From Nitriliruptoraceae bacterium (GTDB lineage: Bacteria > Actinomycetota > Nitriliruptoria > Nitriliruptorales > Nitriliruptoraceae): a stretch of 43,391 bases of DNA. This document shows positions 583 to 30,686 of this stretch, piece after piece (position 1 is the first letter of the stretch; each line of letters opens with the position of its first letter). Below the pieces are notes generated by a model, which was not told the origin of the DNA, made no database searches, and saw only the letters and a list, made by a program, of their open reading frames with translations. The stretch covers positions 1 to 43,391 of the forward strand of contig JBBDVU010000031.1 of assembly GCA_040903225.1 (NCBI GenBank). The letters are read 5' to 3'. The position numbers and the translations under genes are program-made.

Positions 583-585
583 GCC

Positions 586-3330: not shown

Positions 3331-3332
3331 CG

Positions 3333-4085: not shown

Positions 4086-4213
4086 GTTCGCCGCCGACCG
4101 ATCCGGGGCATCTGCGTGATCGTTTCGACGAGTCCGCGCCTCCACCGCTCGCCAACCCTCGCATTCGTCGCACCCACACGCGGCCAGGGCTCGCGGGGTT
4201 TGTCGGCGATTCT

Positions 4214-7050: not shown

Positions 7051-7058
7051 CTACTGGC

Positions 7059-8273: not shown

Positions 8274-8389
8274 CCTCACTCGTGGTTGGTGCAGGTCTTG
8301 GCGGTAGCGTATGGCCGCAACGGGCGTGCCAGCATGCATCGCGCTGTCCGTCGCAAATACGCTGCCACTTGCGGCCAGGAGCCTGCACG

Positions 8390-9298: not shown

Positions 9299-9358
9299 GC
9301 GATCGACGGCGGACAACCGGCCGAGACTTGGTCGGTCCAACTGCTGAGCGAGGCATGC

Positions 9359-10228: not shown

Positions 10229-10246
10229 CACGACAGTCAGGACACG

Positions 10247-11245: not shown

Positions 11246-13065
11246 TGGGCGACCATGTGGCGGTGACTGCGGCGAATCCCTCTATTGCGTGTGCAATGGT
11301 CGTTGCCGATGAACTCACGCGCAACGGCGTGCGCGAGGTCATTGTTGCCCCCGGTTCGCGGTCGACGGCGCTGGCGATTGCTGTGCACGACAACGATGCA
11401 CTCAATGTGCATGTTCACCCCGATGAACGCTCCGCTGGATTCGTCGCACTGGGGATCGCCAGGCAGACTGGGCGGCCAGCAGCGGTTATCACGACCAGCG
11501 GTTCGGCTGTAGCCAACCTTCATCCGGCGGTCGTGGAAGCGGACAGCGGCCAGGTGCCGTTGTTGTTGCTGACTGCCGACCGCCCGCCTGAACTGCGTCA
11601 CACGGGCGCGAGTCAGACGATCGATCAGGCCGGTCTGTTCGGTAACGCGACGCGATGGGCCGTCGACATTGCGGTCGCTGAGAACCGCGTTGACGCGGTC
11701 GCGATGTGGCGTTCTACGCTCTGTCGCGCGCTGGCTGCTGCCAGCGGCGTGCACGGGTCACCCGGACCCGTTCAGGTCAACATCGGATTTCGTGAACCAA
11801 CCGTTCCGGTGACCGATGATGGGCGAAGTCCACCGGAATCATTCGACCAGCCGGTCGACGGGCGATCCGGCGGACGGCCATGGATCAGCGTCACATCAGG
11901 TCGCTGCCTGCCAGATGCCGAACGTGAGGCGGCTGCGCGGACGCTGGTGCAGCATGCCCGCGGCATCATTGTCGTTGGACAGCTTGCGGCCAGCGTCGCT
12001 GAAGCTCAGCGTTCGGCCGTCGCCATCGTGGAACTGGCAGAGGTTCTGCAGTGGCCGGTACTTGCCGAGCCGGGACCGGTGCGGGCACACCCCGCCGATC
12101 AGGTGACGATCGGCTTTGGACACCATCTGGCTGCCAGCCGCGCGTTGATGGCGGACCATCGACCCACGTTCGTGCTGCGCGTCGGCAGGATTGGTGTGTC
12201 GCCTGCCGTCGAGGCATTCCTGCAATCCGAATCGCTCGCGAACGTCGAGCAGCTGCTCGTCGATCCCTACGCGAGCTGGCACGATCCAAATCGGCAATTG
12301 ACCGGCGTGCTCGCTGGTGACGTTGCTGCCACCTGCCAGCGCCTGGCACAAGACATTGCGATCATGCCGGAACGGCGTCCCGAGCAAGGCTGGCTCCAGT
12401 GGTGGAAGACGGTCGATTCGCGGATCGAAGCGGCACTTGGCGAGCTGGTCGACGACGGCGATCTGACTGAACCCGCAGTCGCCAGAACGTGTTTCCGTGT
12501 GCTCGAATCCGGCGATGTCGTGGTCGCCGGTTCGTCGATGCCGATACGCGACATCGACCGGTACACACCGGCCGGCACAGGGGTGGATCTCGTTGCGAAC
12601 CGCGGCGCATCGGGCATTGACGGCACCGTGTCCACTGCGCTTGGTGTCGCGCTCACTCGAAAGCGAGGCCGCGTCGTCGCGCTTGCGGGCGACCTGACCA
12701 TGCTGCACGACATGAACGGCTGGCTGCTCTCACCCGCTGATCGCGCAGTGCCAGACATTACGTTTGTGGTGGTTGACAACAACGGTGGCGGCATTTTCTC
12801 GTTCTTGCCTCAGGCCAAGTTTGTAGGAGCGTTCGAACGCTTGTTTGGAACTCCGCATGGCCGAAGTTTCAAGCGATACGCCGAGTTTCATGACCTGGCG
12901 TATCACCCAGCAACTACTGTTGCTGAACTCGAAGCGGCGTTGCAGCGAACTCGCACGGGTCAGAATCTCATCCACGTGCAGACCGAGCGCACCGCCAACG
13001 TCGTCTGGCATCGCGAACTTGACCAGGCCGTCGCAGTCGTCATCGGAGAACTGGCGTCTGGTTAG
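11242..13065 (+). CDS. menD: SEPHCHC synthase (ThDP-dependent)
   Basis: N-terminal GSRSTALAIA and overall three-domain ThDP-enzyme layout, with a GDL...N ThDP motif near the C-terminus (GDLTMLHDMNG). ATGA overlap with menC. Confidence 0.85.
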   Translation: MMGDHVAVTAANPSIACAMVVADELTRNGVREVIVAPGSRSTALAIAVHDNDALNVHVHPDERSAGFVALGIARQTGRPAAVITTSGSAVANLHPAVVEADSGQVPLLLLTADRPPELRHTGASQTIDQAGLFGNATRWAVDIAVAENRVDAVAMWRSTLCRALAAASGVHGSPGPVQVNIGFREPTVPVTDDGRSPPESFDQPVDGRSGGRPWISVTSGRCLPDAEREAAARTLVQHARGIIVVGQLAASVAEAQRSAVAIVELAEVLQWPVLAEPGPVRAHPADQVTIGFGHHLAASRALMADHRPTFVLRVGRIGVSPAVEAFLQSESLANVEQLLVDPYASWHDPNRQLTGVLAGDVAATCQRLAQDIAIMPERRPEQGWLQWWKTVDSRIEAALGELVDDGDLTEPAVARTCFRVLESGDVVVAGSSMPIRDIDRYTPAGTGVDLVANRGASGIDGTVSTALGVALTRKRGRVVALAGDLTMLHDMNGWLLSPADRAVPDITFVVVDNNGGGIFSFLPQAKFVGAFERLFGTPHGRSFKRYAEFHDLAYHPATTVAELEAALQRTRTGQNLIHVQTERTANVVWHRELDQAVAVVIGELASG

Positions 13066-17433: not shown

Positions 17434-18570
17434 ATGCGCGACATTTTGGACACCGTTCGAGCTTGGCGGCAGCATGACGACGCGGTCGGGCTGGCAACCG
17501 TTGTCGATGTGCGGAGAAGTGCGCCCCGTCAGCCGGGTGCGGCAATGGCGGTCAGCGCAGCTGGTGAGGTTATCGGCAGCGTGTCGGGTGGGTGCGTCGA
17601 AGGCGCAGTCTTCGACGTTGCGCAACAGGTCATGGCGTCACACCAACCTCAGCTGGTGACCTACGGCATCAGTGACGATGAAGCCATGGCGGTCGGGTTG
17701 ACGTGCGGCGGTGAGATCGAATTGTTCATCGAGCGGCTTGATAGTCGCAGTCGAGCGCAGATCGATGCAGTCGCCGATGCGATTGCGGCGGAAGCGCCGT
17801 TAGCACTTGCAACCGTCATCGCAGGACCGGCCGATATCGCCGCCAAGCTTGCGGTCACTGAAACAGATGTTGTTGGCACGCTCGGCGACGAGGGCTTGGA
17901 TGCCGCCGTCGGCGACGATGCACGCGGCATGCTTGAACAGGGAGCTACTGCCCAGCGACGATATGGCCGCCATGGTGAGCGGCGTCGCGACGAGGTGACC
18001 GTGTTCATCGAGTCGTTCGCGCCACGGCCCCGCATGTACGTGTTCGGTGCCATCGATTTCGCCGCCGCGGTTGCGCGCATCGGCAGCTACCTCGGCTATC
18101 ACGTCACTGTCTGTGATGCACGCGCCGTGTTCGCTACGCGTAAACGTTTTCCGGAAGCCGATGACGTCGTCGTCGAGTGGCCTCATCGGTTCCTGGCTTC
18201 CGCGCCAGTCGACCGGCGAACCACTATTTGTGTGCTCACGCACGACCCCAAGTTCGACGTGCCGGTACTCGAGATCGCGCTGCGTTCTGACGCCAGCTAC
18301 GTCGGCGCGATGGGTTCACGGCGCACCCACGAAGATCGCATGCAGCGCCTGCGCGAGCAAGGGCTGACAGATCGTGAACTGGCCCGGCTGCACTCACCTA
18401 TCGGACTCGATCTTGGCGCCCGTACACCAGAAGAGACGGCGGTTTCGATCGCAGCCGAGATCATCCAGAGCCGCTGGGGCGGGCCGGGTCTTCCCCTGCG
18501 TGCTACGTCAGGCGCCATCCATCGGCATGCCGATCGCGTTCGGTCAGCCGGCGGCGTTCTATCCGCCTGA
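17434..18570 (+). CDS. XdhC/CoxI-family cofactor-insertion accessory protein
   Basis: N-terminal XdhC_CoxI motif (ATVVDVRRSAPRQPGAAMAV...GSVSGGCVEG) and a C-terminal Rossmann-like XdhC_C domain (MYVFGAIDFA...). No xdhAB or cox structural genes are nearby. Confidence 0.8.
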   Translation: MRDILDTVRAWRQHDDAVGLATVVDVRRSAPRQPGAAMAVSAAGEVIGSVSGGCVEGAVFDVAQQVMASHQPQLVTYGISDDEAMAVGLTCGGEIELFIERLDSRSRAQIDAVADAIAAEAPLALATVIAGPADIAAKLAVTETDVVGTLGDEGLDAAVGDDARGMLEQGATAQRRYGRHGERRRDEVTVFIESFAPRPRMYVFGAIDFAAAVARIGSYLGYHVTVCDARAVFATRKRFPEADDVVVEWPHRFLASAPVDRRTTICVLTHDPKFDVPVLEIALRSDASYVGAMGSRRTHEDRMQRLREQGLTDRELARLHSPIGLDLGARTPEETAVSIAAEIIQSRWGGPGLPLRATSGAIHRHADRVRSAGGVLSA

Positions 18571-18610
18571 GCTGCAGCGAGAATCAACGTTAACTGCTAG
18601 ACTAACAGTC

Positions 18611-19090
18611 ATGCGACTTGAACTTGGCAAGCGAGCCGACTACGCGATTCGGGCGGCGGTTGATCTCGCGCGTCATCATGCCGATGGGCGTCGCAAAGCC
18701 CGGGCAATTGCCGACGAAATGAGCATCCCGACGAGCTATGTGCCGCAGATTCTGGCGGAACTTGTTAGGGCTGGCATTGCGCGATCCGTGGCCGGCCCCG
18801 ATGGCGGCTATTCGCTGTCGCAACCACCGGTTGACGTGTCGCTGCTCGACGTCCTCCACGCGGTCGATGGCGACGTCGTATCGACGGACTGTGTCCTGCG
18901 AGGTGGGCCTTGTCGCTGGGAAGGTGTGTGCGCGGTGCATGTGCCGTGGTCCCGCGCGCAGCATGCGTTGCTGGACGTGCTCGCCTCGACCAGCCTTGCC
19001 GACATCGTCAATATTGATCGCCAATTGGACGACGGTTCGTTCGAGCTTCCGCCCGACATCGCGATGCCGTTGAACCCTCCACCGGTGTAA
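18611..19090 (+). CDS. Rrf2-family transcriptional regulator with a three-Cys putative Fe-S site
   Basis: N-terminal winged HTH typical of Rrf2 (MRLELGKRADYAIRAAVDLA...). Cys cluster C-x6-C-x5-C (CVLRGGPCRWEGVC). The start is the internal ATG of track ORF 18374..19090. Confidence 0.8.
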   Translation: MRLELGKRADYAIRAAVDLARHHADGRRKARAIADEMSIPTSYVPQILAELVRAGIARSVAGPDGGYSLSQPPVDVSLLDVLHAVDGDVVSTDCVLRGGPCRWEGVCAVHVPWSRAQHALLDVLASTSLADIVNIDRQLDDGSFELPPDIAMPLNPPPV

Positions 19091-19136: not shown

Positions 19137-20282
19137 TCAGACACGTTCGGCTGCCAGCACACACGCAGGATCGTCGGCGAACACGTCGCCAGTCAACGCG
19201 AACGCGCGCGACCGAGAGCCGCCGCAGACATCGGCGAAGCCACAGGATCCGCAGGCACCGTGGAGTCGCTTCGGATCGCGCAGCATTCGCATCAGCGGTG
19301 CATTCCGGTAGATGTCGAGCAGCGGCTGGCTGCGGACAGACCCTGCAGCGACGGGCAGGAATCCACTTGGATAGACGATGCCGAGGTGGTCGATGAAGAC
19401 GAAGCCGCGTCCGGCATTGATGTCGAGTGGCGGCCGTGCGGCTGGTCGCGCCGCAACCTCGGAGGTATCGGTCAGCGCTCGTAGTTCGGCGTACAGATGG
19501 TGCAGCCGCGATATTGGAGGTCGCGCAATCGCCGACGAGCGCCTGCGGGTCCGTTCGACGGCTATGCGTCGGTAGTGCGGCGCTTCGGTGGTCTTGATGG
19601 CGATGCGGCCAGAGACGTCATGCAGCCAGTGCAGAATCGCTTCGGTCTCGTCGGGGTCGGGCGCATCAATGTTGGCGCCGCGTCCGGTCGGTACCAAGAA
19701 GAACACACTCCACAGCCACGCCTGTGCGTGTTCGACAAGCTGCAGGATTGCTGGCAGTTCGCGTGCGTTGCTTCGCGTGACGGTCGTGTTGATCTGCAGC
19801 CGCAGTCCCGCCTGCCTGACGTCGCGCGCAGCGGTGATTGTGGCGTCGAACACACCGGCGATACCCCGGAACATGTCGTGGGTGGCAGCGACGGCGCCGT
19901 CGAGTGACAGGGAAACCGCACGGGCGCCTGCGGCCTTCGCCTGTGCGATCGATTCGGGCGTGAGACGCGCTGTCACCGACGGTGACTGCGCCATGCTCAA
20001 ACCCCGCTGTGCGCCGTGCGCAAGTAATTCGAAAAGGTCATCGCGTTCGAACGGGTCGCCGCCGGTGAGGACGACCAGCGGCGGGGGTGCGCCGAGGTCA
20101 GCGAGTTCGTCGAGCATCGCCATCCCGTCGGCAGTCGAAAGTTCCCGCGGGTGGCGTTGGTCAACGGCGTCGGCCCGACAATGCTGGCACACGAGCTGGC
20201 ACGCCTTGGTTACCTCCCAGATCACCAGAAATGGTCGTTCGTTGACGTCGTAGCGAACATGCCGGACCGGGATGTCACGCAT
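19137..20282 (-). CDS. Radical SAM enzyme with C-terminal SPASM-like Cys cluster (AhbD/NirJ-like)
   Basis: CxxxCxxC motif (CQLVCQHC) about 30 aa from the N-terminus. C-terminal Cys-rich region (CGSCGFADVCGG...DPAC). Start MRDIPV at 20282 overlaps the upstream stop (ATGCGTGA). Confidence 0.8.
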   Translation of the reverse strand: MRDIPVRHVRYDVNERPFLVIWEVTKACQLVCQHCRADAVDQRHPRELSTADGMAMLDELADLGAPPPLVVLTGGDPFERDDLFELLAHGAQRGLSMAQSPSVTARLTPESIAQAKAAGARAVSLSLDGAVAATHDMFRGIAGVFDATITAARDVRQAGLRLQINTTVTRSNARELPAILQLVEHAQAWLWSVFFLVPTGRGANIDAPDPDETEAILHWLHDVSGRIAIKTTEAPHYRRIAVERTRRRSSAIARPPISRLHHLYAELRALTDTSEVAARPAARPPLDINAGRGFVFIDHLGIVYPSGFLPVAAGSVRSQPLLDIYRNAPLMRMLRDPKRLHGACGSCGFADVCGGSRSRAFALTGDVFADDPACVLAAERV

Positions 20283-21804
20283 GCGGGGTCCGATCGCCGA
20301 GGTGGTCGATGACCTGAAGCACGGCGCGTTCGGCGCTGCGGAGGCAATTCGCCAGCCCAGGGCCGTCGAACGCTGCCCCGGCGAGAACGACCCCTGGCCG
20401 GTGTACGCCGAGGCTGTTGCGAGCTGCCTGGATTCGCTGGCTGTGGCCAATCTCGTTGACGGGAAGGGTGTGGGTCCAGCGGTGCACCGCAACTTGTTCT
20501 GGTGTGGCGCGCAGACCGGTGATGGCGGACAACTCGCCATGGAGCCGGTCGGTCACCTCCGCATCGGAAAGATCGTTGGCTCGGGTGTCACCGAACCGAC
20601 CAGTCGACATCCGAACCAGGAACTGCGGCGGCAGATCGAGGTGCGGCCACTTGGCGCTGAGAAATGTGGCCGACTTCAGCATGCCGCCAAAGTTCGACGG
20701 AAGCATGATCCCGGAGGCGTCGAAGGCCGACAGAGATTCGACTGCTGCCTGCGGGTACGCAACGACCACGCACGTGACCGACGACGTCGGACAGCGACCG
20801 AGTGTGGTTGGGATGTCGGTGACGTCGGCAAGCATTCGTGCTGCCGATGCCGCGCCTGTTGCGATGACGACGGCGGCGAACGTCTCGGTTGCCGAATGCG
20901 GAGTCGACGTCGGGGCACCCGTCGGGCCAACGATCTGGTAGCTGCCACCGGCCGTCTTGACGATTGCCTGTACGGGCTGGCCCAAACGGACGTCAGTGCC
21001 ACCCGCCAGTTGCTCGATCACCCGTTGCAGACCGGACACTGCCGTGGCGAAACCCGGCACGTCGGCTGCGCTGCCCGGATGCACCGGCGATGGTCGCCGC
21101 CGCGATCGCCGCAACGTTGCGGCGAGGACGGACCGGTTCGCTGTGAGCTGATCGACCAACTGGGGTGCGCAGCTGCGTGCCTCCAAACGGAAAATGTCGG
21201 CGCCGTGGAGATTGCCCAGCAAGGGATCGACAATGCGCTGTGCCAACTGCCGACCGAACCGTTCGGTAACAAGCTGGCCGACCGACGTTTGATCGGTGAT
21301 GTGGCTGCGTGTGCGTACGAGTTCGGTCGCCGCCCTGAGCAGGCCCGTGGGCGACAGGATCCGGGATGATGCGACCGGCAGCAGCCGGGTCGGTCCGGCC
21401 GGCGTGACGCCATGGGGAAGCCGCCGCAGCGTGACCGCCGGTTGTCCGGCGATTTCGCCAGGAGGTATCCAACCGCTGCTGCCGGTCCCGGTGGGCACGC
21501 CGATCCAGGTGCGCAACCGCCGAGCCCGAACGATGTCGTTGGAACACGCGGTGAAAAGTTGCGGCATGCCGGCAGCGGCAAATATGGCTTCGGCCCCGAG
21601 TTCGACGGCAACGCCAGCCGTGACGTTGACACTTCGCACCTGGCCACCGATGCGGCCAGATGCCTCGAACACCACCGGGGTGTAGCCGCGATCGGCAAGC
21701 AGGGCTGCAGTTGCAATACCGGTGACGCCGGCGCCAATGACCGCGATGCGATGGTCAGGCGCCAGTCCTGGCGTGGATGAACGTTGGTCTACTTGTCCTG
21801 GCAC
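20275..21804 (-). CDS. HemY-type FAD-dependent (copro/proto)porphyrinogen oxidase-like protein
   Basis: N-terminal dinucleotide fold IAVIGAGVTGIATA...FEASGRIGG. Mid-protein VGQLVTERFGRQLAQRIVDPLLGNLHGAD and a C-terminal LAGAAFDGPGLANC, all typical of HemY/CgoX. Confidence 0.7.
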   Translation of the reverse strand: MPGQVDQRSSTPGLAPDHRIAVIGAGVTGIATAALLADRGYTPVVFEASGRIGGQVRSVNVTAGVAVELGAEAIFAAAGMPQLFTACSNDIVRARRLRTWIGVPTGTGSSGWIPPGEIAGQPAVTLRRLPHGVTPAGPTRLLPVASSRILSPTGLLRAATELVRTRSHITDQTSVGQLVTERFGRQLAQRIVDPLLGNLHGADIFRLEARSCAPQLVDQLTANRSVLAATLRRSRRRPSPVHPGSAADVPGFATAVSGLQRVIEQLAGGTDVRLGQPVQAIVKTAGGSYQIVGPTGAPTSTPHSATETFAAVVIATGAASAARMLADVTDIPTTLGRCPTSSVTCVVVAYPQAAVESLSAFDASGIMLPSNFGGMLKSATFLSAKWPHLDLPPQFLVRMSTGRFGDTRANDLSDAEVTDRLHGELSAITGLRATPEQVAVHRWTHTLPVNEIGHSQRIQAARNSLGVHRPGVVLAGAAFDGPGLANCLRSAERAVLQVIDHLGDRTPHA

Positions 21805-21813
21805 GACAGCGGT

Positions 21814-22209
21814 CTATGACGCTGGGACGAATACGAGTTCCATGCCGGCATCTCGATGTCCTGGCACCGAGCACCAGCCGATCACCGGTTCGCTGATGGG
21901 GCCGATGGTTATCGTCGCGGCCCGGCCGGGACGGATCATGCCGCTGTCGACGCTGTCGGTCACCAGGTCGTGCACGATGCCGCCCTCGTTGACCAGTTGC
22001 AGCGTCGTCGGCTGAGTCGCCGAGATCGCGACCTCGTCAGGTTCGAACCGGATGTCATCGAGAATGATGACGACGGCGTCATCGGGTGCCTTGCTAGCAT
22101 CGGGTTCGAGATCGGGTGCGCAGGCGATGATCGCGATACTGAAGGTGGATGCCACGGCCACCTGGGCCGCCGAGCGAAAGCGGAACGATGCCGGGGTTGC
22201 CATGTTCAT
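21814..22209 (-). CDS. Lipoprotein cupredoxin (type 1 blue copper protein)
   Basis: Signal peptide with lipobox (SIAIIAC). Type 1 Cu ligand pattern: His (IVHDL) ... C-x2-GH-x4-M (CSVPGHRDAGM). ATG 22209 is preceded by GAGG at 7 nt; TTG 22233 is an alternative start. Confidence 0.75.
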   Translation of the reverse strand: MNMATPASFRFRSAAQVAVASTFSIAIIACAPDLEPDASKAPDDAVVIILDDIRFEPDEVAISATQPTTLQLVNEGGIVHDLVTDSVDSGMIRPGRAATITIGPISEPVIGWCSVPGHRDAGMELVFVPAS

Positions 22210-22287
22210 GTTCCTGCCTCGTAGGCGCCTCAAGGTTCGTTGCAGCCGGTCCGGCTTGCCAAGCGTGAATCGAATGTGTAGTGTACC

Positions 22288-22320
22288 ACTAACATTTAGT
22301 CCAATGACAAACGTTTATTA
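22288..22320. promoter_or_regulatory. AT-rich quasi-palindromic operator candidate (site 1) in the divergent cupredoxin/ctaA intergenic region
   Basis: ACTAACATTTAGTCCAATGACAAACGTTTATTA. It shares TAACATTnAGT and ACAAACGTT blocks, at the same (or +1) spacing, with 28134-28166. Half-sites TAACATT and AACGTT(A) are inverted repeats. Confidence 0.55.
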
Positions 22321-22349: not shown

Positions 22350-23483
22350 ATGCCAACTCATCAGCGACACGGTCGGCGCGTGACGTTCGTCCGCCGTCTC
22401 GCGGTAGCGACGTCGATCGGGACGCTGGTGCTGATCGCTATGGGTGGTGGGGTCAGGGCAACCGATTCCGGGCTTGCCTGCCCCGACTGGCCGGCCTGCT
22501 ACGGCATGTGGATTCCGCCAGCGGACTTCAATATGTGGATGGAGCACAGTCATCGGCTGTGGGCGGGTGTGATCGGGATTGCGGTAGCGTTGCTGATGGC
22601 GTTGACTTTTGTTGATCGCAAGGCGGCACCCGCGCCATGGCGACTCAGTGCGCTCGCGGGCCTGCTGGTCATCGTACAAGCAGGACTCGGTGCAGTGGTC
22701 GTGCTCCTGCATCTGCGTGCCGGCCTGGTGACGTCGCACCTGGGTATGTCGCTTGTCATCGTCGGTGCGCTCATCGCGGTTGCCGTTCGGGCGGGCACCA
22801 CTACCCCGGATGCAGGCGCCCAATTTGTGGGCACAGCATGGAATGCGCGTACCGTGCGGTTCGGATCGATTGCGGCGGCAGCGGTATTCGTGCAAGCCCT
22901 GCTCGGTGGTCAAGCCACCGGCCGTGGCGCTGCCTATGTCTTCAACGCTGTGCCGATCTGGTTGGCGACCGATGCCTGGTCGGGTCACATCCGAGAGATC
23001 CTGCACGTGACCCACCGGGCGGGTGGCTATCTGGTCGCTGCCGCCGTCGTCGCATTCGCGGTGCATGCCGCGCGACGCAGTCGCCGTCTGGCGGAGGTTG
23101 CCGACGCCTCGGCCAACCGCGCGATCAGCCCGGCGAGTTCGGACAGCATGAGCCTAAAGCGTGCTGCGCGCATCGCCCGGAACACCAGATTCTGGGCAAT
23201 CATCGCCGCCGGTCTCGTGGTGGTCCAGGTGGGATTAGGGCTTGCCAACGTGTTGACACAGGCTATGGTTCCGGTGGCCGTCGGACACTTGTCAGTCGCA
23301 AGCTGGCTGTGGGCAGTGCTGGTGCTGATCGTCGTCCGGGAGCGACACGCGCGGGATCTCGAATATGCATGGGGCGGGATTGAGCTCGGTCCGAACATTG
23401 CAGTTCACGGCGGATCTGGTCGTGCCCCGGTTTTGGCATCGTCGTCGGCATCCGAGCCATCGACTTCGGAGGTGACCGTATGA
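22350..23483 (+). CDS. ctaA: Haem A synthase (COX15/CtaA)
   Basis: GGGVRATDSGLACPDWPACYG motif plus conserved His in TM helices (EHSHR). Polytopic. Confidence 0.85.
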   Translation: MPTHQRHGRRVTFVRRLAVATSIGTLVLIAMGGGVRATDSGLACPDWPACYGMWIPPADFNMWMEHSHRLWAGVIGIAVALLMALTFVDRKAAPAPWRLSALAGLLVIVQAGLGAVVVLLHLRAGLVTSHLGMSLVIVGALIAVAVRAGTTTPDAGAQFVGTAWNARTVRFGSIAAAAVFVQALLGGQATGRGAAYVFNAVPIWLATDAWSGHIREILHVTHRAGGYLVAAAVVAFAVHAARRSRRLAEVADASANRAISPASSDSMSLKRAARIARNTRFWAIIAAGLVVVQVGLGLANVLTQAMVPVAVGHLSVASWLWAVLVLIVVRERHARDLEYAWGGIELGPNIAVHGGSGRAPVLASSSASEPSTSEVTV

Positions 23484-23632
23484 GTGATGTGAACGAACGT
23501 CATCCGTGGCAGCAGCGCGCGCTCGACAACATCTGGTTGCTGCTGGCAATCAGTGTCGTCGTGCCGGGTTTGCTGTACCTCGGGTGGGGACTGTGGGAAC
23601 TAGCTGAGCTTCCAGTGTGGGGCGGAAGGTAG
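23480..23632 (+). CDS. Unannotated 50-codon single-TM ORF; candidate small oxidase subunit (ba3 subunit IIa analogue)
   Basis: Below the track's size cut-off. ATGA overlap with the ctaA stop. Translation: MSDVNERHPWQQRALDNIWLLLAISVVVPGLLYLGWGLWELAELPVWGGR. Its stop lies within the GGAG Shine-Dalgarno sequence of the subunit II gene. Confidence 0.55.
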   Translation: MSDVNERHPWQQRALDNIWLLLAISVVVPGLLYLGWGLWELAELPVWGGR

Positions 23633-23641
23633 GAGACCGAC

Positions 23642-24217
23642 GTGGACACCGATCACACCACGCACGACGAATCCGCGCACAGCAAGGCGCAGTCGACGTT
23701 GCTGCCTCCGCCAGACCGATGGTGGCAACGTCTCGGGCCCGATGAGAGACGCTGGCTCACGATCGCCTTTGTCTGGTGCTTGATCTTGTTCAGTGGCATG
23801 TACATCTGGCTCGGTATCGGCGATCAACAGACGCCGATCGAGTCGTATCGTGTGGATCCGGTTGTTTTTGCGGCGGAAGTCCAGGATTTCATCGAAGAGC
23901 ATCAGGTTGATGAAATCAGCGGTGCGGCGATCGTCGCACCGCCACCCGGTAGTGATGTCTATCTTCAGGCCAACCAGTTCGCGTTCCGGCCGGTGTTGCA
24001 ACTGCAGCGCGGCGAAACCTATCGATTGCTCGTTTCGTCAACCGACGTGCAGCACGGTTTGTCGCTCCAGCCGGTCAACCTCAATTTCCAAGTCCTGCCC
24101 GGGTATCTGTACGTGATTCGCATCACGCCCACAGAAACCGGGGAATTTCCGATCATCTGCAACGAGTTCTGCGGCCTTGGTCATCACGTGATGACCGGGT
24201 TGATCGTCGTCGACTAG
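23642..24217 (+). CDS. Haem-copper oxidase subunit II, ba3 (B-family) type, with intact CuA site
   Basis: One TM helix plus a cupredoxin domain with CuA ligands: H (DVQHG), CNEFCGLGHHVM. The length (191 aa) and the string EFPIICNEFCGLGH closely resemble Thermus ba3 subunit II (YRIICNQYCGLGH). Confidence 0.85.
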   Translation: MDTDHTTHDESAHSKAQSTLLPPPDRWWQRLGPDERRWLTIAFVWCLILFSGMYIWLGIGDQQTPIESYRVDPVVFAAEVQDFIEEHQVDEISGAAIVAPPPGSDVYLQANQFAFRPVLQLQRGETYRLLVSSTDVQHGLSLQPVNLNFQVLPGYLYVIRITPTETGEFPIICNEFCGLGHHVMTGLIVVD

Positions 24218-24259
24218 ACCGCGCAGGCGTATCGACGCCGGATATAGGGAGGCAAACAC

Positions 24260-26011
24260 GTGACCGCCATCGCGGAGCCAACGGCATTCCGGACATGTAA
24301 TGTCACCGGATTTCGGATCCACAAGGACGGCCAGCGCCATGCGCTCGTCAACGCTGTCGCGGCCGTGGTGCTGCTGGCGATCGGCGGCACATGGGCCATA
24401 TTGATCGCACTGCAGCGCCAGGGCCTACCAATCAGTGAGGACTGGTGGTACCGGCTGCTTGCCAGCCACGGCGCGACCATGCTGCTGTTCTGGATCTTGT
24501 TCTTCGAAGTCGCAGCCTTGTACTGGGGCTCGACGATGCTGCTCAATGCGCGAATGCTCGCGTCGAAGCTCGCCTGGGCCAACTTTGCGATGATGGCCCT
24601 TGGTGTTGCGCTCGCGCAATGGGCGATGTTGACCGGCCGGGCCACCGTCATGTTCACGGCCTATCCGCCATTGACGGCGCACCCGCTCTACTACGCCGGC
24701 ATCCTCATGTTCGCGGTTGGTGTGCTGATCGCCTGCTGCATCTTTTTTGCCAACATCATCGTTGCCAAGCGCGAGAAGACCTATGAAGGGTCGCTGCCGC
24801 TGGTGGTGTACGGGCTGGTCGCTGCTGCGGTCATCGCGGTGTATGCGCTCGGGACCGGAGCGGTGGCCTATGGGATGCTGTTCCTCGACTCCGTCGGGTT
24901 GATGGACGGTGTCGACCCGGCGTTGTACCGACTGTTTTTCTGGGGTATCGGCCATGGCGCGCAGCAAGTGAACCTGGCCGCGATGGTGGCCGTCTGGTAC
25001 GCGCTGATCGCGTTGACGCTGGGTGGACGGCCGGTCAACGAAGGACTGAGCCGATTCGCGTTCCTGCTCTACATCGCGTTCATTCACCTTGGCGCCGTGC
25101 ACCACCTGCTCGTTGACCCGGGCCTTGGCACCAGCCACCGCATCATGAACACGAGCTATTTCCTGTACCTCGCGGTGCTGGCGAGTCTCATCCATGCGTT
25201 CTCGGTTCCTGCGGCAATGGAAGTTGCCCAACGTGAACGCGGAATCGGCCACGGAATGTTCGGCTGGCTCAAGAAGGCGCCGTGGCGCGAACCAGGATTT
25301 TCGGCGCTGGTGCTCTCGGTGGTGTACTTCGGGTTCATTGCGGGCGTGACCGGGGTGCTCATGGGCACGATGCAGCTCAACATGATCATCCACAACACGC
25401 TGTTCGTGGTCGGTCACTTCCACGCCACCGTAGTTTCCGGGACGACGCTCGCGTTCATGGGCATCTCGTACTACATCGTGCCGCTGTTGAGCCAGCGCAA
25501 GTTGTCATCCCCGCGGATGGCGCAACTGCAGACGTATGTATTCGCTGGAGGCTTGGCGATACTGACCCTGGGGATGTTGGTCGCTGGTCAGCGCGGTGTG
25601 CCGCGTCGGGTGGCGGACCTGGAATACACCGGATCGCCGCTCAGTGTTGAGCTGTTCGGTGCGACGACACCGACGCCAATGCTCATGGGGATCATCTCGG
25701 TTGGTGCCGTGCTCGCGGTCGTCGGTGGCGTCATGTTTGTCTGGAACATGGTGGCGACACTGTTCTGGGGCGAGCGGACCGAACGTGGCGACGAAGGGCT
25801 CGCTATCGCCTACTCCAACATTGCTGGTCGTGACAGTCGCGGCATTGCGGTGCAGACGCACCCCGACCTGGTGGCGCAAGGCATCAAGGGTCGATGGGCG
25901 CAATTCGAAGCGCCGGGTACGTACCTGATCGTGCTGATTTTCTTGGCCTGGTTCGTGGTGATGTATGTCGCCGCCCATCTCAATCTGTCGCGCGCCTGGC
26001 CGGTCGGATAG
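24260..26011 (+). CDS. Haem-copper oxidase superfamily subunit I, ba3-like (B-family related), lacking the canonical cross-linked Tyr
   Basis: Alignable by eye along its length with Thermus ba3 subunit I. Ligand His present: H70, H232, H281/H282, H386/H388. Motif GHGAQQV replaces GHPIVYF. Confidence 0.85.
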   Translation: MTAIAEPTAFRTCNVTGFRIHKDGQRHALVNAVAAVVLLAIGGTWAILIALQRQGLPISEDWWYRLLASHGATMLLFWILFFEVAALYWGSTMLLNARMLASKLAWANFAMMALGVALAQWAMLTGRATVMFTAYPPLTAHPLYYAGILMFAVGVLIACCIFFANIIVAKREKTYEGSLPLVVYGLVAAAVIAVYALGTGAVAYGMLFLDSVGLMDGVDPALYRLFFWGIGHGAQQVNLAAMVAVWYALIALTLGGRPVNEGLSRFAFLLYIAFIHLGAVHHLLVDPGLGTSHRIMNTSYFLYLAVLASLIHAFSVPAAMEVAQRERGIGHGMFGWLKKAPWREPGFSALVLSVVYFGFIAGVTGVLMGTMQLNMIIHNTLFVVGHFHATVVSGTTLAFMGISYYIVPLLSQRKLSSPRMAQLQTYVFAGGLAILTLGMLVAGQRGVPRRVADLEYTGSPLSVELFGATTPTPMLMGIISVGAVLAVVGGVMFVWNMVATLFWGERTERGDEGLAIAYSNIAGRDSRGIAVQTHPDLVAQGIKGRWAQFEAPGTYLIVLIFLAWFVVMYVAAHLNLSRAWPVG

Positions 26012-26014
26012 GTC

Positions 26015-26950
26015 ATGGCAATGTCTTCGGCAGCGGCAGAGACGGCGGTTGTCACCAGCAGTGCAGCCTCGGCTGCAACGTGGCGCGACGCGGTCGCCGA
26101 CTATACGAGCCTGACCAAGCCGCGGATCATCGAGCTGCTGCTGGTGACGACGGTGCCAGCGATGTTCGTCGCCGCTCGCGGTTGGCCCGGGACCGGGCTG
26201 CTGGTCGCAACACTCGCGGGTGGCGCGCTCGTGTCGGGTTCGGCGCATGCGTTCAACATGGTTATCGACCGCGACATCGACGGCATGATGGCGCGGACCC
26301 GCAACCGCCCGATGCCATCGGGCAGGATCTCGGTACAGTCGGCGCTGCAGTTTGCGACGGTGCTGCTTGTGCTGGGCACGACAATACTTGCGGCATTCGC
26401 GGGCATGCTGGCCACGGCGCTCACCGTTGTCGCCTGGGCCTGGTATGTCGTCATCTACACGCTCCTGCTGAAGCGAAGAACACCGCAGAACATCGTGATC
26501 GGGGGTGTCGCCGGCGCGCTCCCGCCAATGATCGGCTGGGCCGCCGTGACCGGATCGATCGCCATGCCGGCCGTCATCATGTTCGCTGTTGTGGTGTTGT
26601 GGACCCCCACACACTTTTGGGCGCTTGCGATCGGCACCGGGCAGGACTACGCAAATGCCAACGTGCCGATGCTGCCGGTACTCCGGGGAGCGCATGCCGC
26701 CGGGAGGCAGGCGGCGGTCTACGCCGCGCTGACGGTGGCGGCGTCGTTCACCTTGTTAGCCGCTGGCTTGTCTAGCCCGATTTTCGCTGTGTTGCTGGTG
26801 TTGTTCGGCACGGTCTTTGTTGGTTATGCCCTGTTGTTTGCCAGGTCGATTTCGTGCAAGCGCGCCTGGGTGCTGTTCCACCTGTCCAACGGCTACCTGG
26901 CGCTGGTATTTGCCGCGATCGCGGCGGTCGGTCTGCTCCACGAATGGTGA
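26015..26950 (+). CDS. ctaB: Protohaem IX farnesyltransferase (haem O synthase)
   Basis: UbiA-family with CtaB strings (GSAHAFNMVIDRDIDGMMARTRNRP; TPQNIVIGG; LWTPTHFWALA). Confidence 0.9.
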   Translation: MAMSSAAAETAVVTSSAASAATWRDAVADYTSLTKPRIIELLLVTTVPAMFVAARGWPGTGLLVATLAGGALVSGSAHAFNMVIDRDIDGMMARTRNRPMPSGRISVQSALQFATVLLVLGTTILAAFAGMLATALTVVAWAWYVVIYTLLLKRRTPQNIVIGGVAGALPPMIGWAAVTGSIAMPAVIMFAVVVLWTPTHFWALAIGTGQDYANANVPMLPVLRGAHAAGRQAAVYAALTVAASFTLLAAGLSSPIFAVLLVLFGTVFVGYALLFARSISCKRAWVLFHLSNGYLALVFAAIAAVGLLHEW

Positions 26951-26954
26951 CATC

Positions 26955-28163
26955 GTGAACGGGCGTCGCGTCAGCTTGGCGCTGACGATCGGTATCGCGG
27001 TTGTGCTCGTCAACGGATTGGCAGCCACGCCGGCGCACGCGCACACGCGGACCGCGGAAACGACCAATCTTGCCAGTGTCGTCACCAACGCGCCTGAACT
27101 CGAGGGTGTCACCTTCACGGTCTATACCGGGGGCTTTCTTATTGGGCTCACGAACGCGACGGATCGCGACATCATCGTGGCCGGATACGACGGTGAGCCG
27201 TACCTGCGCATCGGGCCCGACGGTGCGTTCGAGAACCGGCACTCGGCCGCGACCTATCTCAACCGGGAGCGTTACGGTGATGTGGCGGTCCCACCGCGTG
27301 TCGACCCTGCGAGCGACCCAGACTGGATCCGGGTCAGTGCACAACCATCGTGGGTGTGGCACGACCACCGCACCCATTGGATGTCACCGCAGCCACCGCG
27401 TTTCGTTGAAGCGTCGGTGGTGACCCGCCTGCTGATGCGTGCACGGCTCGTGGGGCCGATCGGATCGGGCGGAGAGCAACAGGGTGCGTTTCAGGAGTGG
27501 CAGATCCCGTTCGAGCACGATCAACATGCCTATGTCATTAGCGGCGAGTTGCGCTGGATCGACGCGCCACCAGTATGGCCGTGGTACCTGCTGGCAGCAG
27601 CGTTTGTTGCGATGATGTTGGGTGTGAACCGTGCGGTGTCCCGCCATGAGATGATCGGGCCCCAGCGATGGTTGAACCCGCTCGCCAACCTCGTCGTGGC
27701 GGTGGCTGTCGTAAACGCCATTCACCTAGTTGATGATCTGGCAGCATGGCCTGGCGACCTGCTCGACGAACTATTTGGCCTGCTGCACACGCTGCTGTTT
27801 CTCACCGCTGGCCTGGTCGGCGCGTTCTGGGCCCGTTATGCCCGTGACGGGCGGGTTTTGGCACTCGGCATCGCCTCTGGTGCCCTGGTGTATCACCAGG
27901 GTCTGGTGCACCTGCCGATGCTGTACGCATCACAGTTTCCAACACTGTGGCCACCCGAGCTCGTTCGATTCAGTGTTGCACTGGGACTCATGCAAGCCGT
28001 GCCTGTGGCATGGTTTGTCATTGGCCACCTGCGCAGCCACCGTTCCGATGCCAACAACGGCCTGCAGGCAGATGTGAGCCAGCCGACGGTGCCGGTGGCG
28101 TCGAAAGCGGACCAGCCGCACATCAACTTGGATAGTAACATTAAGTATGGTACAAAACGTTAG
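26955..28163 (+). CDS. Exported His-rich domain fused to a polytopic membrane domain; function unknown (candidate copper-handling or assembly factor)
   Basis: GTG 26955 lies 4 nt after the ctaB stop. Signal peptide ends ...ATPAHA, followed by HTRT. Motif WVWHDHRTHWM (nt 27357-27383). Five or six C-terminal TM helices. Confidence 0.6.
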   Translation: MNGRRVSLALTIGIAVVLVNGLAATPAHAHTRTAETTNLASVVTNAPELEGVTFTVYTGGFLIGLTNATDRDIIVAGYDGEPYLRIGPDGAFENRHSAATYLNRERYGDVAVPPRVDPASDPDWIRVSAQPSWVWHDHRTHWMSPQPPRFVEASVVTRLLMRARLVGPIGSGGEQQGAFQEWQIPFEHDQHAYVISGELRWIDAPPVWPWYLLAAAFVAMMLGVNRAVSRHEMIGPQRWLNPLANLVVAVAVVNAIHLVDDLAAWPGDLLDELFGLLHTLLFLTAGLVGAFWARYARDGRVLALGIASGALVYHQGLVHLPMLYASQFPTLWPPELVRFSVALGLMQAVPVAWFVIGHLRSHRSDANNGLQADVSQPTVPVASKADQPHINLDSNIKYGTKR

Positions 28164-28166
28164 TAT
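28134..28166. promoter_or_regulatory. AT-rich quasi-palindromic operator candidate (site 2), upstream of the second cupredoxin gene
   Basis: AGTAACATTAAGTATGGTACAAAACGTTAGTAT. Inverted half-sites are TAACATT (28136-28142) and AACGTTA (28156-28162), with an inner GTAnnnTAC. Overlaps the last codons of the upstream gene and lies about 70-95 nt before ATG 28231. Confidence 0.55.
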
Positions 28167-28230
28167 CAGCGCTACAACGCCATCACATCAGGTGGTGATC
28201 AGCGCCACGGATTCGCAAAGGAGAATATTC

Positions 28231-28596
28231 ATGCGCACGTCCAGAGTCCTCGTGATCGCGATCGCCGCTGTGGTGATCGCCGCGTGTGGAGGGGGTGACG
28301 ATGCGCCCGCCGCAGCCCCTGCGAGCGGCGCCATCAGTGTCGAAGCCGGCGACTTGTACTACGAACCGACGAGCCTGACTGCTGCGGCAGGTGAGATTCA
28401 GATCACCATCGAGAACACCGGCGCGGTCGAACACGATGTCGTCATCGAAGAAGCGGGTGACGTAGAGGTCGTCCATGCAGAGGCCGGAGAAACCGTAACT
28501 GGCACCGTCACGCTCGAAGCAGGCACCTACACGTTCTACTGCGCGATTCCAGGCCACCGTGCTGCCGGCATGGAGGGGACGCTCACCGTCCAATGA
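28231..28596 (+). CDS. Lipoprotein cupredoxin (type 1 blue copper protein), paralogue of 21814..22209
   Basis: AAGGAG Shine-Dalgarno sequence upstream of the ATG. Signal plus lipobox (VVIAAC). Cu ligands: H (VEHDV) ... CAIPGHRAAGM. Confidence 0.8.
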   Translation: MRTSRVLVIAIAAVVIAACGGGDDAPAAAPASGAISVEAGDLYYEPTSLTAAAGEIQITIENTGAVEHDVVIEEAGDVEVVHAEAGETVTGTVTLEAGTYTFYCAIPGHRAAGMEGTLTVQ

Positions 28597-28663
28597 TGGC
28601 GGCTAACACTTGAACCGTCACACCGGGTCGGTGACCAGCACCGGCCCGGATGAGGGGCCCAAC

Positions 28664-29407
28664 ATGACTACCACGGTGAACACGCGTTCGGCTCCCAGCC
28701 CCGCGACGGTCCATCGCGCGCTCGCAAGCCCCGTGCGTGGACGCATCATCGACACGCTCGTCGACTCGTCACCGTGCGACATTCAGGAGTTGGCGGCAGC
28801 GATGGGCTTGCACCCCAACACCATTCGTAGTCACCTGGTAATTCTGGAAGAAGCCGCGTTGGTCGACTACACGCACGCTGCACCGGCCGGTAGAGGCCGC
28901 CCACGCCGCCTCTACCGCGCGATGGCTGCCCGTTGGACCGAGGATGGCGCCTTCGGCTACGAACTGCTCGCGTCGATCCTCGCTGGTGTCGTGGCATCCG
29001 AGTCGAGCGATCCAAGCCGGCCGACCGAACAACGTGCGGCCGAGTGGGGCCGTCGCCTCGTTCAAGAACACCGGATCACGCCTGGCCCGCCCGCTTCTAC
29101 GGCGCGTGCGCTCGATCACGTCACCGTGATGCTGGATCGACTGGGTTTCGAACCAGAGGTCGACCTTGCCGCGCACGGCGGCCCAACACTGCGTCTGTAT
29201 CAGTGCCCATTCCGGACCGTCGCTCGCGACAACCCCAGAGTCGCCTGTGCGGTCCACCTCGGGTTGACGCGAGGTGCGCTCGAAGCTCTTGGCGGGGGGT
29301 TGCAGATCCGTCGCTTTGAACCGCACCTTGGCGCCGGCCCATGCGTGACCATGTTCGGTACCCGAAGGTCCGCGCCAAGTAACGGTGTGGCCGGCGAGGC
29401 GCGCTGA
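28664..29407 (+). CDS. ArsR-type winged-HTH regulator with extended C-terminal Cys/His-containing domain
   Basis: HRALASPVRGRIIDTL...IQELAAAMGLHPNTIRSHLVILEEAALV is an ArsR/SmtB-type HTH. The C-terminal domain carries CPF...ACAVHLG...GPC. An earlier start (28610) is possible. Confidence 0.75.
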   Translation: MTTTVNTRSAPSPATVHRALASPVRGRIIDTLVDSSPCDIQELAAAMGLHPNTIRSHLVILEEAALVDYTHAAPAGRGRPRRLYRAMAARWTEDGAFGYELLASILAGVVASESSDPSRPTEQRAAEWGRRLVQEHRITPGPPASTARALDHVTVMLDRLGFEPEVDLAAHGGPTLRLYQCPFRTVARDNPRVACAVHLGLTRGALEALGGGLQIRRFEPHLGAGPCVTMFGTRRSAPSNGVAGEAR

Positions 29408-29408
29408 C

Positions 29409-30686
29409 ATGCCGGACCGCTCTTCGCGGGTGCCGCTTGGGGCTTCACCGTTCGGGCACGCCGCCCCGTCGATCATTCTGGCAGTCCTGTTTATGGCGGC
29501 AACGATCGTCTGGGCGGTCGTTGACGTCCTGCCAGGCGGCAGGTGGTTCGCGGTTCACCTGTTCACTCTGGGGGTATTGACCAACGCCGTACTCACGTTC
29601 AGTGATCATTTTTCCCGCACACTCACCCGTTGGCCCGGCGAACGGGCATGGTGGTGGCCGCTACCGATTAACGGTGCCATTGTGACGATGCTCGTCGGGA
29701 TGCAACTCGCCGGGCGGTGGGTGTTCGCCATCGGCGCGACCGGGGTGCTCACTGTCGTGTTGATGTCGTACTGGCGCATCAGGACGATGCGAAAGCGCGC
29801 ACTCGGCCCCCGGTTCGGTTGGGTCGTGCGGATGTATGAACGCGCTCATGGCGCGTTTGTCCACGGTGCACTGCTTGGCATCCTGTTGGGCATCGGTGTG
29901 GTTGCTGGTCCGTGGTATGGGACCGCCCGGCTGGCGCATCTGCACATCAACATCTTCGGCTGGGGCGGTTTGACGCTGCTGGCAACGCTCGTCTTCTTCG
30001 GGCCGTCGATGGCACGTACGCGCATCGAACCCGGCGCTGACGCCCGGGCTGCCAAGGCGCTTCGCATTGGCGCTACGGCATTGACGGTTGCCGTCGTCGC
30101 ACTGTTATTGTCAGCATTCGCAGGAACAGCTGGTGTCGTATTCCGGCTGCTGGCCGCACTGATGTTCGCCGGCTTCGGCTGGGCCGTACTTGTCGTCTGC
30201 ATACCGCTGGTACGAGCGGTATGCAGCGCACGGCGGAGCGCACAGCAGCCACTGATCGTGGCAGTGGCATTCTGGTTCGGTGGCGCCGCGATCGCCGACG
30301 TCGTCGTGATAGCCACGGCGCAGTGGGCGTGGCTCGATGCGATCGGTGCCATGATGCTCGCCGGTGTACTTGCTCAGGCGATTCTTGCCACCCTCATCTA
30401 TCTCACCCCGATGCTGCGCGGGCGCACCGCGCAGGCACGCGACATCATGCGTGACCGACTCGACCGGGCTGCCCTGGTGCGGGCGGTCGCGTTCAATGCT
30501 GGGGTCGTCGCACTCGTGCTGGCAGCGGTTCCCAACGGCGTTGCCGCCGCCACCGTGGCAGGATGGCTGCTGGTGGCCACAACGATCACCACCACCGGGG
30601 CGATCGCGCTCAGCCCGCTCAAGGCGGTCGACCGCCCGGTAGATGCGCCTGCAGCCGACCACCAGCCGTCGCGTCAGGACGCGTAA
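29409..30686 (+). CDS. Polytopic (about 10-12 TM) membrane protein with conserved-looking intramembrane His residues; function unknown
   Basis: ATG lies 1 nt after the ArsR stop (TGAcATG). Hydrophobic throughout. Motifs FAVHLFTLG and LAHLHINIFGWGG. Confidence 0.6.
   Translation: MPDRSSRVPLGASPFGHAAPSIILAVLFMAATIVWAVVDVLPGGRWFAVHLFTLGVLTNAVLTFSDHFSRTLTRWPGERAWWWPLPINGAIVTMLVGMQLAGRWVFAIGATGVLTVVLMSYWRIRTMRKRALGPRFGWVVRMYERAHGAFVHGALLGILLGIGVVAGPWYGTARLAHLHINIFGWGGLTLLATLVFFGPSMARTRIEPGADARAAKALRIGATALTVAVVALLLSAFAGTAGVVFRLLAALMFAGFGWAVLVVCIPLVRAVCSARRSAQQPLIVAVAFWFGGAAIADVVVIATAQWAWLDAIGAMMLAGVLAQAILATLIYLTPMLRGRTAQARDIMRDRLDRAALVRAVAFNAGVVALVLAAVPNGVAAATVAGWLLVATTITTTGAIALSPLKAVDRPVDAPAADHQPSRQDA

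Follow-up and report, generated by a model that had tools for sequence, protein, structure and literature searches.

Several families of nitric oxide (NO) reductase, namely bNOR (qCuANOR, Bacillus azotoformans), sNOR, gNOR and nNOR, stem from B-family haem-copper oxidases (HCOs), and the same origin is described for eNOR, one of whose subunits carries CuA and whose K-channel is of the B type and includes S309 (Murali et al. 2024, PMC11214002). No migrated tyrosine is reported for the NO reductase families derived from the B-family (PMC11214002). The eNOR of Rhodothermus marinus (DSM 4252) has been purified; its conversion of NO to nitrous oxide (N2O) was measured directly, O2 was not reduced with a range of donors, and the enzyme carries haem As, a modified haem A, in both sites (PMC11214002). 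The residue at the site of the active-site tyrosine is Gln in eNOR, for which it is diagnostic, Asn in sNOR, Glu in cNOR and qNOR and Tyr in oxidases (PMC8756737, section 2.7.1 and Table A4). Many eNOR operons include ctaA (PMC11214002), and the eNOR neighbourhood of Magnetospirillum (M. magneticum) holds both ctaA and ctaB (bioRxiv 10.1101/2021.10.15.464467). Here we analyzed a stretch of 43,391 nt from a Nitriliruptoraceae bacterium (Nitriliruptoria, Actinomycetota; GenBank assembly GCA_040903225.1, contig JBBDVU010000031.1), called the window throughout, and judging by its sequence a string of nine genes at 22350-30686 probably encodes an eNOR-type NO reductase along with enzymes that supply its cofactors and helpers peculiar to the lineage.

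The genes of this string and one divergent neighbour are listed below; gene 6, gene 8 and gene 9 stand for the sixth, eighth and ninth gene of the string (exported protein, ArsR-like regulator and polytopic protein).

22350-23483, + strand: ctaA, haem A synthase (PF02628, E 3e-36), with a 4-nt overlap with the following open reading frame (ORF)
23480-23632, + strand: putative small single-helix subunit of 50 amino acids, conserved upstream of subunit II; no match in Pfam or NCBIfam
23642-24217, + strand: subunit II, one transmembrane helix and a CuA cupredoxin domain (PF00116; CuA motif CNEFCGLGHHVM)
24260-26011, + strand: catalytic subunit I, probably of eNOR type (PF00115, E 4e-65)
26015-26950, + strand: ctaB, haem O synthase (NF003349, 343 bits against a cut-off of 246; TIGR01473, 290 bits)
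26955-28163, + strand: gene 6, orphan exported or membrane protein of 402 amino acids (ORF open from 26817)
28231-28596, + strand: lipoprotein cupredoxin of the type-1 copper class (ORF from 28147; PF00127, E 2e-13; PF13473, E 6e-12; lipobox IAAC)
28610/28664-29407, + strand: gene 8, ArsR-type winged-helix regulator (PF12840, PF01022; weak SufR match)
29385/29409-30686, + strand: gene 9, polytopic protein of 425-433 amino acids and 12 helices, predicted to have the fold of HCO subunit I
21814-22233, - strand: second lipoprotein cupredoxin, divergent from ctaA (PF13473, E 5e-6, just under the cut-off; lipobox IIAC)

An earlier sequence-only reading of this DNA had described the string as a self-contained nine-gene respiratory module built around an oxidase that lacks the active-site tyrosine. 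All nine ORFs were located where it had placed them on the + strand, and its gaps of -4 to about 70 nt match the coordinates: with the most plausible starts the junctions measure -4, 9, 42, 3, 4, 67, 13-67 and 1 nt, while alternative starts give -17 instead of 67 nt before the cupredoxin gene and -23 instead of 1 nt before the polytopic gene. Six of the nine gene identities were confirmed by profile searches in Pfam and NCBIfam, where the 50-amino-acid ORF, gene 6 and gene 9 matched no model, and we agree that this is not a textbook cta or cba operon.

The assignment to eNOR is carried by subunit I. Its closest solved structure is subunit I of the ba3 oxidase of Thermus thermophilus (cbaDBA; PDB 1EHK; E 4e-47), and in the HMMER alignment ba3 H233-P-I-V-Y237 falls onto H232-G-A-Q-Q236, showing that Gln236 occupies the cross-linked Tyr site and that the tyrosine is indeed missing. 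We aligned subunit I from 84 related loci (numbered with the prefix L) with the Thermus protein and added the 240 best database homologues. The metal ligands H70, H232, H281, H282, H386 and H388 are retained in 83-84 of the 84 loci, the replacements Y237 to Q, V236 to Q and W239 to N relative to ba3 occur in every one of them, as do the K-channel-like residues S309, Y247 (ba3 Y248) and H312 (ba3 T312), and the motif GH-x-x-QQ-x-N is present in all 240 homologues. Identity to ba3 is 25-32% across the 84 loci compared to 43-81% inside the family. Assemblies of Nitriliruptoraceae and Egicoccus hold the nearest homologues of the window protein (72-80% identity); Gln-bearing homologues of Rhodothermales, Betaproteobacteria, Chloroflexi and Nitrospirae are 43-58% identical to it, and ba3 30%. 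The family as a whole includes Rhodothermales, many Betaproteobacteria, Chloroflexi, Nitrospirae, Trueperaceae and Thermaerobacter, a spread that fits the published eNOR distribution.

The tyrosine four residues after the first CuB His, which marks B-family oxygen reductases, is absent from every member. The Asn found at this site in sNOR (PMC8756737, Table A4), whose active site is shared by bNOR (PMC11214002), is Gln236 here, even if both of these families resemble the window enzyme in having kept a CuA subunit and a proton path (PMC11214002). In gNOR a CuB His has become Asp and CuA is lost (PMC11214002), whereas the window has all His ligands, the three CuB-type His among them, and a full CuA motif. 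The nNOR enzymes differ in a cNOR-like site and a Met haem ligand where the window enzyme has His/His. Neither is it a cNOR or qNOR. These have a NorB related to the C-family, accompanied by cytochrome c as a subunit or extended by a domain fused to the N-terminus, and they lack CuA (PMC11214002); subunit II of the window is a CuA cupredoxin, and models of the ccoN type also score far below B- and A-type models on the window protein. What it shares with eNOR is the Gln at the Tyr site, the relation to the B-family with six His, the CuA subunit II, K-channel residues including the S309 equivalent, His/His ligation of the low-spin haem, and ctaA and ctaB nearby (PMC11214002). The eNOR members that we fetched from Rhodothermales and Betaproteobacteria are about 45-48% identical to the window subunit I. 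Sources for the eNOR family are Hemp and Gennis (2008) and Murali et al. (2024, PMC11214002).

Thus, on the Gln at the tyrosine site, the shared features and the taxon distribution we file subunit I as eNOR, and the label of an oxidase has to be given up, as this Gln is diagnostic for eNOR and the characterised member reduces NO and not O2 (PMC11214002, PMC8756737). The combination of enzyme and ctaA/ctaB is already described for eNOR operons and the core would, from its sequence, be an ordinary new member. The core result is therefore a correction, from an oxidase to a known NO reductase family, and these actinobacteria should be regarded as organisms that may release N2O in microoxia.

Some observations weigh against this assignment. 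It was reached through the diagnostic residue, shared features and taxa and not through a tree with characterised eNOR sequences (Rmar_0161, M. magnetotacticum), and the nearest Rhodothermales homologue is just 48% identical, so that the activity is an extrapolation; R. marinus itself was not among the best 120 matches in a search started from a Rhodothermales homologue. A family-invariant tyrosine, Tyr271 (codon at about 25070-25072; ba3 has Phe here), precedes the HH pair in helix VII by ten residues and may reach the active site, whose metal may be Fe or Cu. The window has no nirK, nirS, nar or nos gene, and the roles given below to genes 6, 8 and 9 are no more than proposals.

Should the enzyme be a genuine terminal oxidase, aa3-like, of high affinity, fed by blue copper and able to reduce O2 without the His-Tyr cofactor, then the B-family fold, the intact CuA, the six His ligands and the K-channel-like path would all be expected. 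Dedicated synthesis of haem A, which requires O2, the window's lack of denitrification genes and the description of cultured Nitriliruptoria as aerobes point in the same direction. We nevertheless regard such an oxidase as very unlikely, because the Tyr is replaced in all of the more than 300 family members examined, because the sole characterised one reduced NO and, offered a variety of donors, failed on O2 (PMC11214002), and because nirK adjoins the core in several family loci. In the Nitrospirota-type loci L044, L055 and L072 it precedes the eNOR core at a distance of up to about 6.5 kb, and in L056 it lies nearby; in L055 it stands directly upstream and is itself preceded by a sensor kinase and a response regulator. 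The coordinates in these Thermodesulfovibrionia/Nitrospirae loci are:

L044:2137-2943: nirK
L055:8018-9025: nirK
L072:3528-4337: nirK
L056:18222-19022: nirK

The adjacency of nirK also fits NO as the substrate. Were it another small molecule such as N2O, nitrite or a sulfur species, Gln236 and the Q-Q-x-N motif would stand for a so far undescribed chemistry. For a different substrate one could cite the low NO turnover in R. marinus of 0.68 per s (PMC11214002) and an active-site motif unlike that of cNOR, qNOR, sNOR and gNOR (PMC8756737, Table A4), but N2O formed from NO was measured directly with the R. marinus enzyme (PMC11214002) and we consider this explanation extremely improbable. A further copper gene was seen close to the core in a Nitriliruptoraceae metagenome-assembled genome:

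L003:3433-4833, - strand: gene for a cupredoxin and two-domain multicopper oxidase

The closest solved relative of subunit II is Thermus ba3 subunit II (E 2e-16), with which its CuA ligands H...C-x-x-x-C-x-x-x-H-x-x-M line up. The two systems thus resemble each other in both main subunits, in a subunit II with one transmembrane helix and in a single K-type path, and they differ in Y237 to Gln, W239 to Asn and T312 to His, in an identity of about 30% only, in the haem A synthesis genes of the window operon and in the fact that the window enzyme would by its family not be an O2 reductase. They also share the position of a gene that stands shortly before the one for subunit II and encodes a tiny protein with a single helix. 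In Thermus this is cbaD, and its product, subunit IIa, supplies a second helix. We infer that the order of small subunit, II and I mirrors cbaD-cbaB-cbaA of the ba3 oxidase. That the 50-codon ORF is a real gene, as had been supposed, was borne out by tblastn, which found it in loci of many phyla, and the family has the motif P-x-x-Q-x-x-L-D-N-x-F/W-L-L-L...P...Y..WG..E. Going by this conservation, the protein appears to be a third subunit of the enzyme.

Four loci of Trueperaceae encode a small subunit whose C-terminus carries a plastocyanin-type cupredoxin with type-1 copper ligands (PF00127, E 1e-10 to 5e-14):

L011:1071-1655: small subunit-cupredoxin fusion
L014:4503-5042: small subunit-cupredoxin fusion
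L020:437-1096: small subunit-cupredoxin fusion
L022:2472-3113: small subunit-cupredoxin fusion

Such a fusion of a structural subunit with a cupredoxin provides good genetic evidence for a blue copper protein as the electron donor to CuA in this family. Together with the intact CuA and with two Chloroflexi-type loci that have a cupredoxin ORF shortly before the subunit II gene, it makes the earlier guess of a cupredoxin donor plausible, and the lipoprotein cupredoxin at 28231-28596 is the probable electron donor to CuA. It has the type-1 copper ligands and orthologues in Nitriliruptoria loci. The ligands are also present in the second cupredoxin at 21814-22233 (H...CSVPGHRDAGM), whose orthologues stand divergently upstream of ctaA in L001, L004, L005, L006 and L081.

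In order to see which genes belong together, the window proteins were compared with the 84 related loci by tblastn; targeted searches and called-gene tables were used, since automatic clustering of neighbouring ORFs was spoiled by spurious antisense ORFs in this DNA of high GC content. The counts were as follows.

Subunit II: match in 83/84 loci
50-amino-acid protein: 71/84 loci, in each case shortly before subunit II and on its strand
ctaB: 63/84 loci, 62 of them within 3 kb of the core
ctaA: 23/84 loci, on the same strand in only 6 and usually divergent
Gene 6: 8/84 loci, Nitriliruptoria only
Cupredoxin: 10/84 loci
ArsR-like gene: 2/84 loci
Gene 9: 5/84 loci

The widely conserved unit, found in many phyla, is the small subunit with II and I, usually joined by ctaB. 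To call all nine genes a self-contained module was overstated, as ctaA is variable and genes 6-9 are parts of the module in Nitriliruptoria only, where even they are rearranged. The closest genomes, L001 and L081, have the same gene order minus the ArsR-like gene; in L004 the cupredoxin gene and gene 9 are located upstream instead, and in L082, L086 and L087 the ArsR-like gene is inverted after gene 6. Gene order, whose conservation the sequence-only reading had proposed to check, is thus kept for the core and gene 6 and only in part for ctaA, the ArsR-like gene and gene 9. Gene 6 directly follows ctaB wherever the upstream gene can be identified (in L085 the contig breaks off within the gene before it), and in the contexts sampled, including those of distant family members, it always lies in an eNOR-type cluster and never beside an ordinary aa3 oxidase.

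In comparison to the eNOR operons described so far the window has its ctaA co-oriented at the operon head and not divergent, and it adds two lipoprotein cupredoxins, gene 6, the ArsR-like regulator and a ligand-poor protein of the oxidase fold. The main text of PMC11214002 mentions none of these added genes, nor a third small subunit. Several helper genes are thus specific to one actinobacterial lineage and undescribed, and the Nitriliruptoria-specific genes, above all the oxidase-fold protein, set the cluster apart as a variant of eNOR.

This oxidase-fold protein is gene 9. Usable matches were not obtained in Pfam, NCBIfam or PDB profile searches, and profile-profile comparison with the eNOR subunit I gave no signal, local or global. 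Its AlphaFold (AF2) model, built with 44 family members, reached a predicted local distance difference test score (pLDDT) of 93.8 and a predicted template-modelling score (pTM) of 0.91, and the top 49 Foldseek matches of this model are all HCO subunit I (probability 0.99-1.00). The relatives include CcoN of cbb3 (template-modelling score up to 0.68), NorB of cNOR, ba3, aa3, qNOR and bo3, with a range of 0.56-0.68 for subunit I of CcoN, NorB, ba3 and aa3 type. Four of the 44 family members show sub-threshold matches to PF00115 (COX1), up to E 2e-5, and apart from these the kinship shows in the fold only. Instead of the six His of an HCO, one each in helices II and VI, an HH in helix VII and an H-x-H in helix X, just two are invariant across the 44 members, H50 and H177 of the 425-amino-acid form (H58 and H185 of the ORF), in predicted helices 2 and 6; predicted helices 7 and 10, in which real oxidases have four of the six ligands, are without His when helices are equated by their order and not by residue-level structural alignment. 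NnrS (PF05940) resembles gene 9 as a 12-helix polytopic protein of about 400 amino acids with few conserved His and a link to nitrite/NO metabolism, but only one of the 44 members matches PF05940, at a non-significant E of 0.03, and the fold match of gene 9 is to oxidase subunit I.

A phmmer search of gene 9 against 1.84 billion representatives returned 423 clusters. Several distant homologues of 750-910 amino acids consist of an N-terminal gene 9 domain followed by a cupredoxin and then a NirK-type copper nitrite reductase. These fusions (P0458, P0481, P0495, P0499; loci L088 and L089) occur in Homoserinimonas, Cryobacterium, Nonomuraea and Phytoactinopolyspora; their NirK part scores 95-171 bits with TIGR02376 and is of full length in three of the four tested, gene 9 and a fusion align pairwise with 29% identity over 384 residues (E 1e-21), and one of the fusion genes lies 5.6 kb from narG. 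According to the model, gene 9 would therefore be a ligand-poor relative of the oxidase fold, tied to NirK by fusion and to eNOR by operon context. The earlier statement that four products of the string have no assignable function can accordingly be kept in part only: it no longer applies to the 50-amino-acid protein, as a conserved subunit, nor to the polytopic protein with its HCO fold and its link to NirK.

We found no description of an N-terminal membrane domain of NirK or of eNOR in Nitriliruptoria in the literature searched, which is not proof of novelty. It is conceivable, though we would put it forward as speculation only, that gene 9 is an undescribed, ligand-depleted branch of HCO subunit I which acts as a membrane adaptor, bringing NirK, eNOR and the tethered cupredoxin together in a single unit from nitrite to N2O, in which toxic NO is handed over without escape, that gene 6 is a dedicated metal-insertion factor, and that the whole represents a new architecture of actinobacterial denitrification. 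The NirK-fused family of this fold could bear on how cells avoid the release of NO between the two steps.

Another orphan deserves mention here. Immediately before gene 9 a membrane protein of 350-443 amino acids without Pfam family is encoded in L004 (44-1168) and L007 (6444-7493), and the same protein precedes the gene 9-NirK fusion of Homoserinimonas (L089:6673-8004; L004 and L089 copies 43% identical); it is also present in L028, L035 and L076, eNOR loci of other phyla, and absent from the window.

The rearrangements among Nitriliruptoria can also be taken to mean that the enzyme serves for NO detoxification only, outside respiratory denitrification, and that genes 6-9 are unrelated neighbours in separate transcription units (ctaA to cupredoxin, and ArsR with the polytopic gene). 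The loss of the ArsR-like gene in L001 and L081, its inversion in L082 and L086 and the displaced cupredoxin and polytopic genes in L004 would agree with this, as would the window without nir, nar or nos gene and an Rrf2 regulator (the family of the NO sensor NsrR) beside the cluster in L081. Still, gene 6 comes after ctaB in every context with an identifiable upstream gene, other Actinobacteria have the polytopic domain and NirK joined in one protein, an energy-conserving role is suggested by the dedicated donor and by the conservation of the proton path, and co-transcription would agree with gaps of 1-67 nt and with terminators that are not in excess. Detoxification alone thus seems unlikely to us. 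As for the transcript itself, 8 terminator-like sites were found in the region when 10.5 were expected from shuffles, and because they are no commoner than in shuffled sequence a single transcript is neither shown nor excluded by sequence; a sigma-70 scan of the region was uninformative, with counts at or below shuffle expectation.

Gene 6 was analyzed in the same way. No usable match was returned by Pfam, NCBIfam or PDB sequence profile searches, and its family consists of 362 homologues, all hypothetical, that apparently share lineage and habitats. The signal peptide of nine orthologues ends in A-x-A or a variant of it; the predicted mature protein starts with H30-T-R-T-x-E-T-T-N, the His being invariant. 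Orthologues further conserve W-H-D-H-R-x-H-W-M in a beta-rich periplasmic domain and H257, D260, H278 and H314 in the five C-terminal helices. The AF2 model (pLDDT 88, pTM 0.80) places the beta-rich periplasmic domain on a five-helix bundle, a fold for which nothing in the PDB matched (best E 0.35, template-modelling score 0.15-0.2). The N-terminal His and the His/Met residues recall the copper 'histidine brace' proteins, and on this ground we tentatively propose, at low confidence, that gene 6 might be an assembly factor which handles a metal, probably copper. Two other candidates were discarded: beta-trefoil matches, with E above 0.06, are noise, and a CopC/YcnI-like identity, for which the N-terminal His alone speaks, is without structural support. 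As eNOR enzymes are still poorly known, the conserved third subunit, the blue copper donor with its fusion evidence and the two orphan membrane families offer leads for further work.

From these data a model for the locus can be proposed. CtaB and CtaA would provide the A-type haem expected to occupy both haem sites, in line with the measurement on the R. marinus eNOR; an A-type haem had been suggested earlier and is plausible, with haem As in both sites of that enzyme (PMC11214002) and ctaA and ctaB bracketing the structural genes here. As O2 is required by CtaA, production of the enzyme probably takes place in microoxia. Electrons would pass from menaquinol via a Rieske/dihaem-c complex to the membrane-tethered cupredoxin (28231-28596, possibly 21814-22233) and from there via CuA and the low-spin haem to the active site, the six His retained in subunit I being those that hold low-spin haem, high-spin haem and the CuB/FeB metal. 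The reaction expected from the family is 2 NO + 2 e- + 2 H+ -> N2O + H2O. Protons may be taken up from the cytoplasm via the K-channel-like path (Y247, S309, H312), and such uptake would make turnover electrogenic. Gene 9 might cooperate, as a ligand-poor oxidase-fold paralogue, with a NirK-type nitrite reductase and possibly serve as a membrane anchor or adaptor which holds NO production near NO reduction, and the ArsR-like protein could be a local regulator.

The first steps of this route would involve genes far upstream in the window:

100-582: Rieske-like ORF
586-1602: dihaem cytochrome c

A bc complex with a fused dihaem cytochrome c had been suggested here, of which the Rieske-like ORF and the dihaem cytochrome c stand, while no cytochrome b was identified in the window. 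The two open a series of genes at 100-13065 that run in one direction and continue with a family-less membrane protein of 311 amino acids, genes of ResA/CcdA/ResB/CcsA type (system II cytochrome c biogenesis) and MenB/MenA/MenC/MenD-like genes. Rieske protein, dihaem cytochrome c, cytochrome c biogenesis and menaquinone genes together fit an electron route from menaquinol to the periplasm.

Regarding regulation, the ArsR-like protein has a C-terminal domain of about 170 amino acids with invariant C181, C195, H198 and C227 (aligned with the orthologues of L007, L082 and L086), possibly a metal or Fe-S sensor site. In the 116-bp intergenic region between the divergent cupredoxin gene and ctaA a site was read directly from the sequence:

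22273-22296: AT-rich near-palindrome, AATGTGTAGTG-TAC-CACTAACATT

Its arms differ by one indel, and it is partly conserved in the corresponding intergenic regions of L001 and L005, making it a candidate operator to which no regulator can be assigned. A second regulator gene lies 3 kb upstream of the cluster:

18374-19090, + strand: Rrf2-family regulator (PF02082, E 2e-32)

It may belong to the module; L081, a relative with 80% identity, has an Rrf2 gene directly upstream of the cluster. At L083:5636-9071, in a distant relative, the eNOR core is placed divergently beside a Crp/Fnr-family regulator and a gene set like that of a cbb3-type oxidase.

Two further genes of the window are found between the Rrf2 gene and the second cupredoxin, encoding a TIGR04053 radical SAM/SPASM protein, AhbD/NirJ-like (19137-20540, - strand; 478 bits against a cut-off of 395), and a flavoprotein resembling protoporphyrinogen/coproporphyrinogen oxidase (20275-21804, - strand). 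This pair at 19137-21804 may provide oxygen-independent haem synthesis beside a haem-hungry enzyme.

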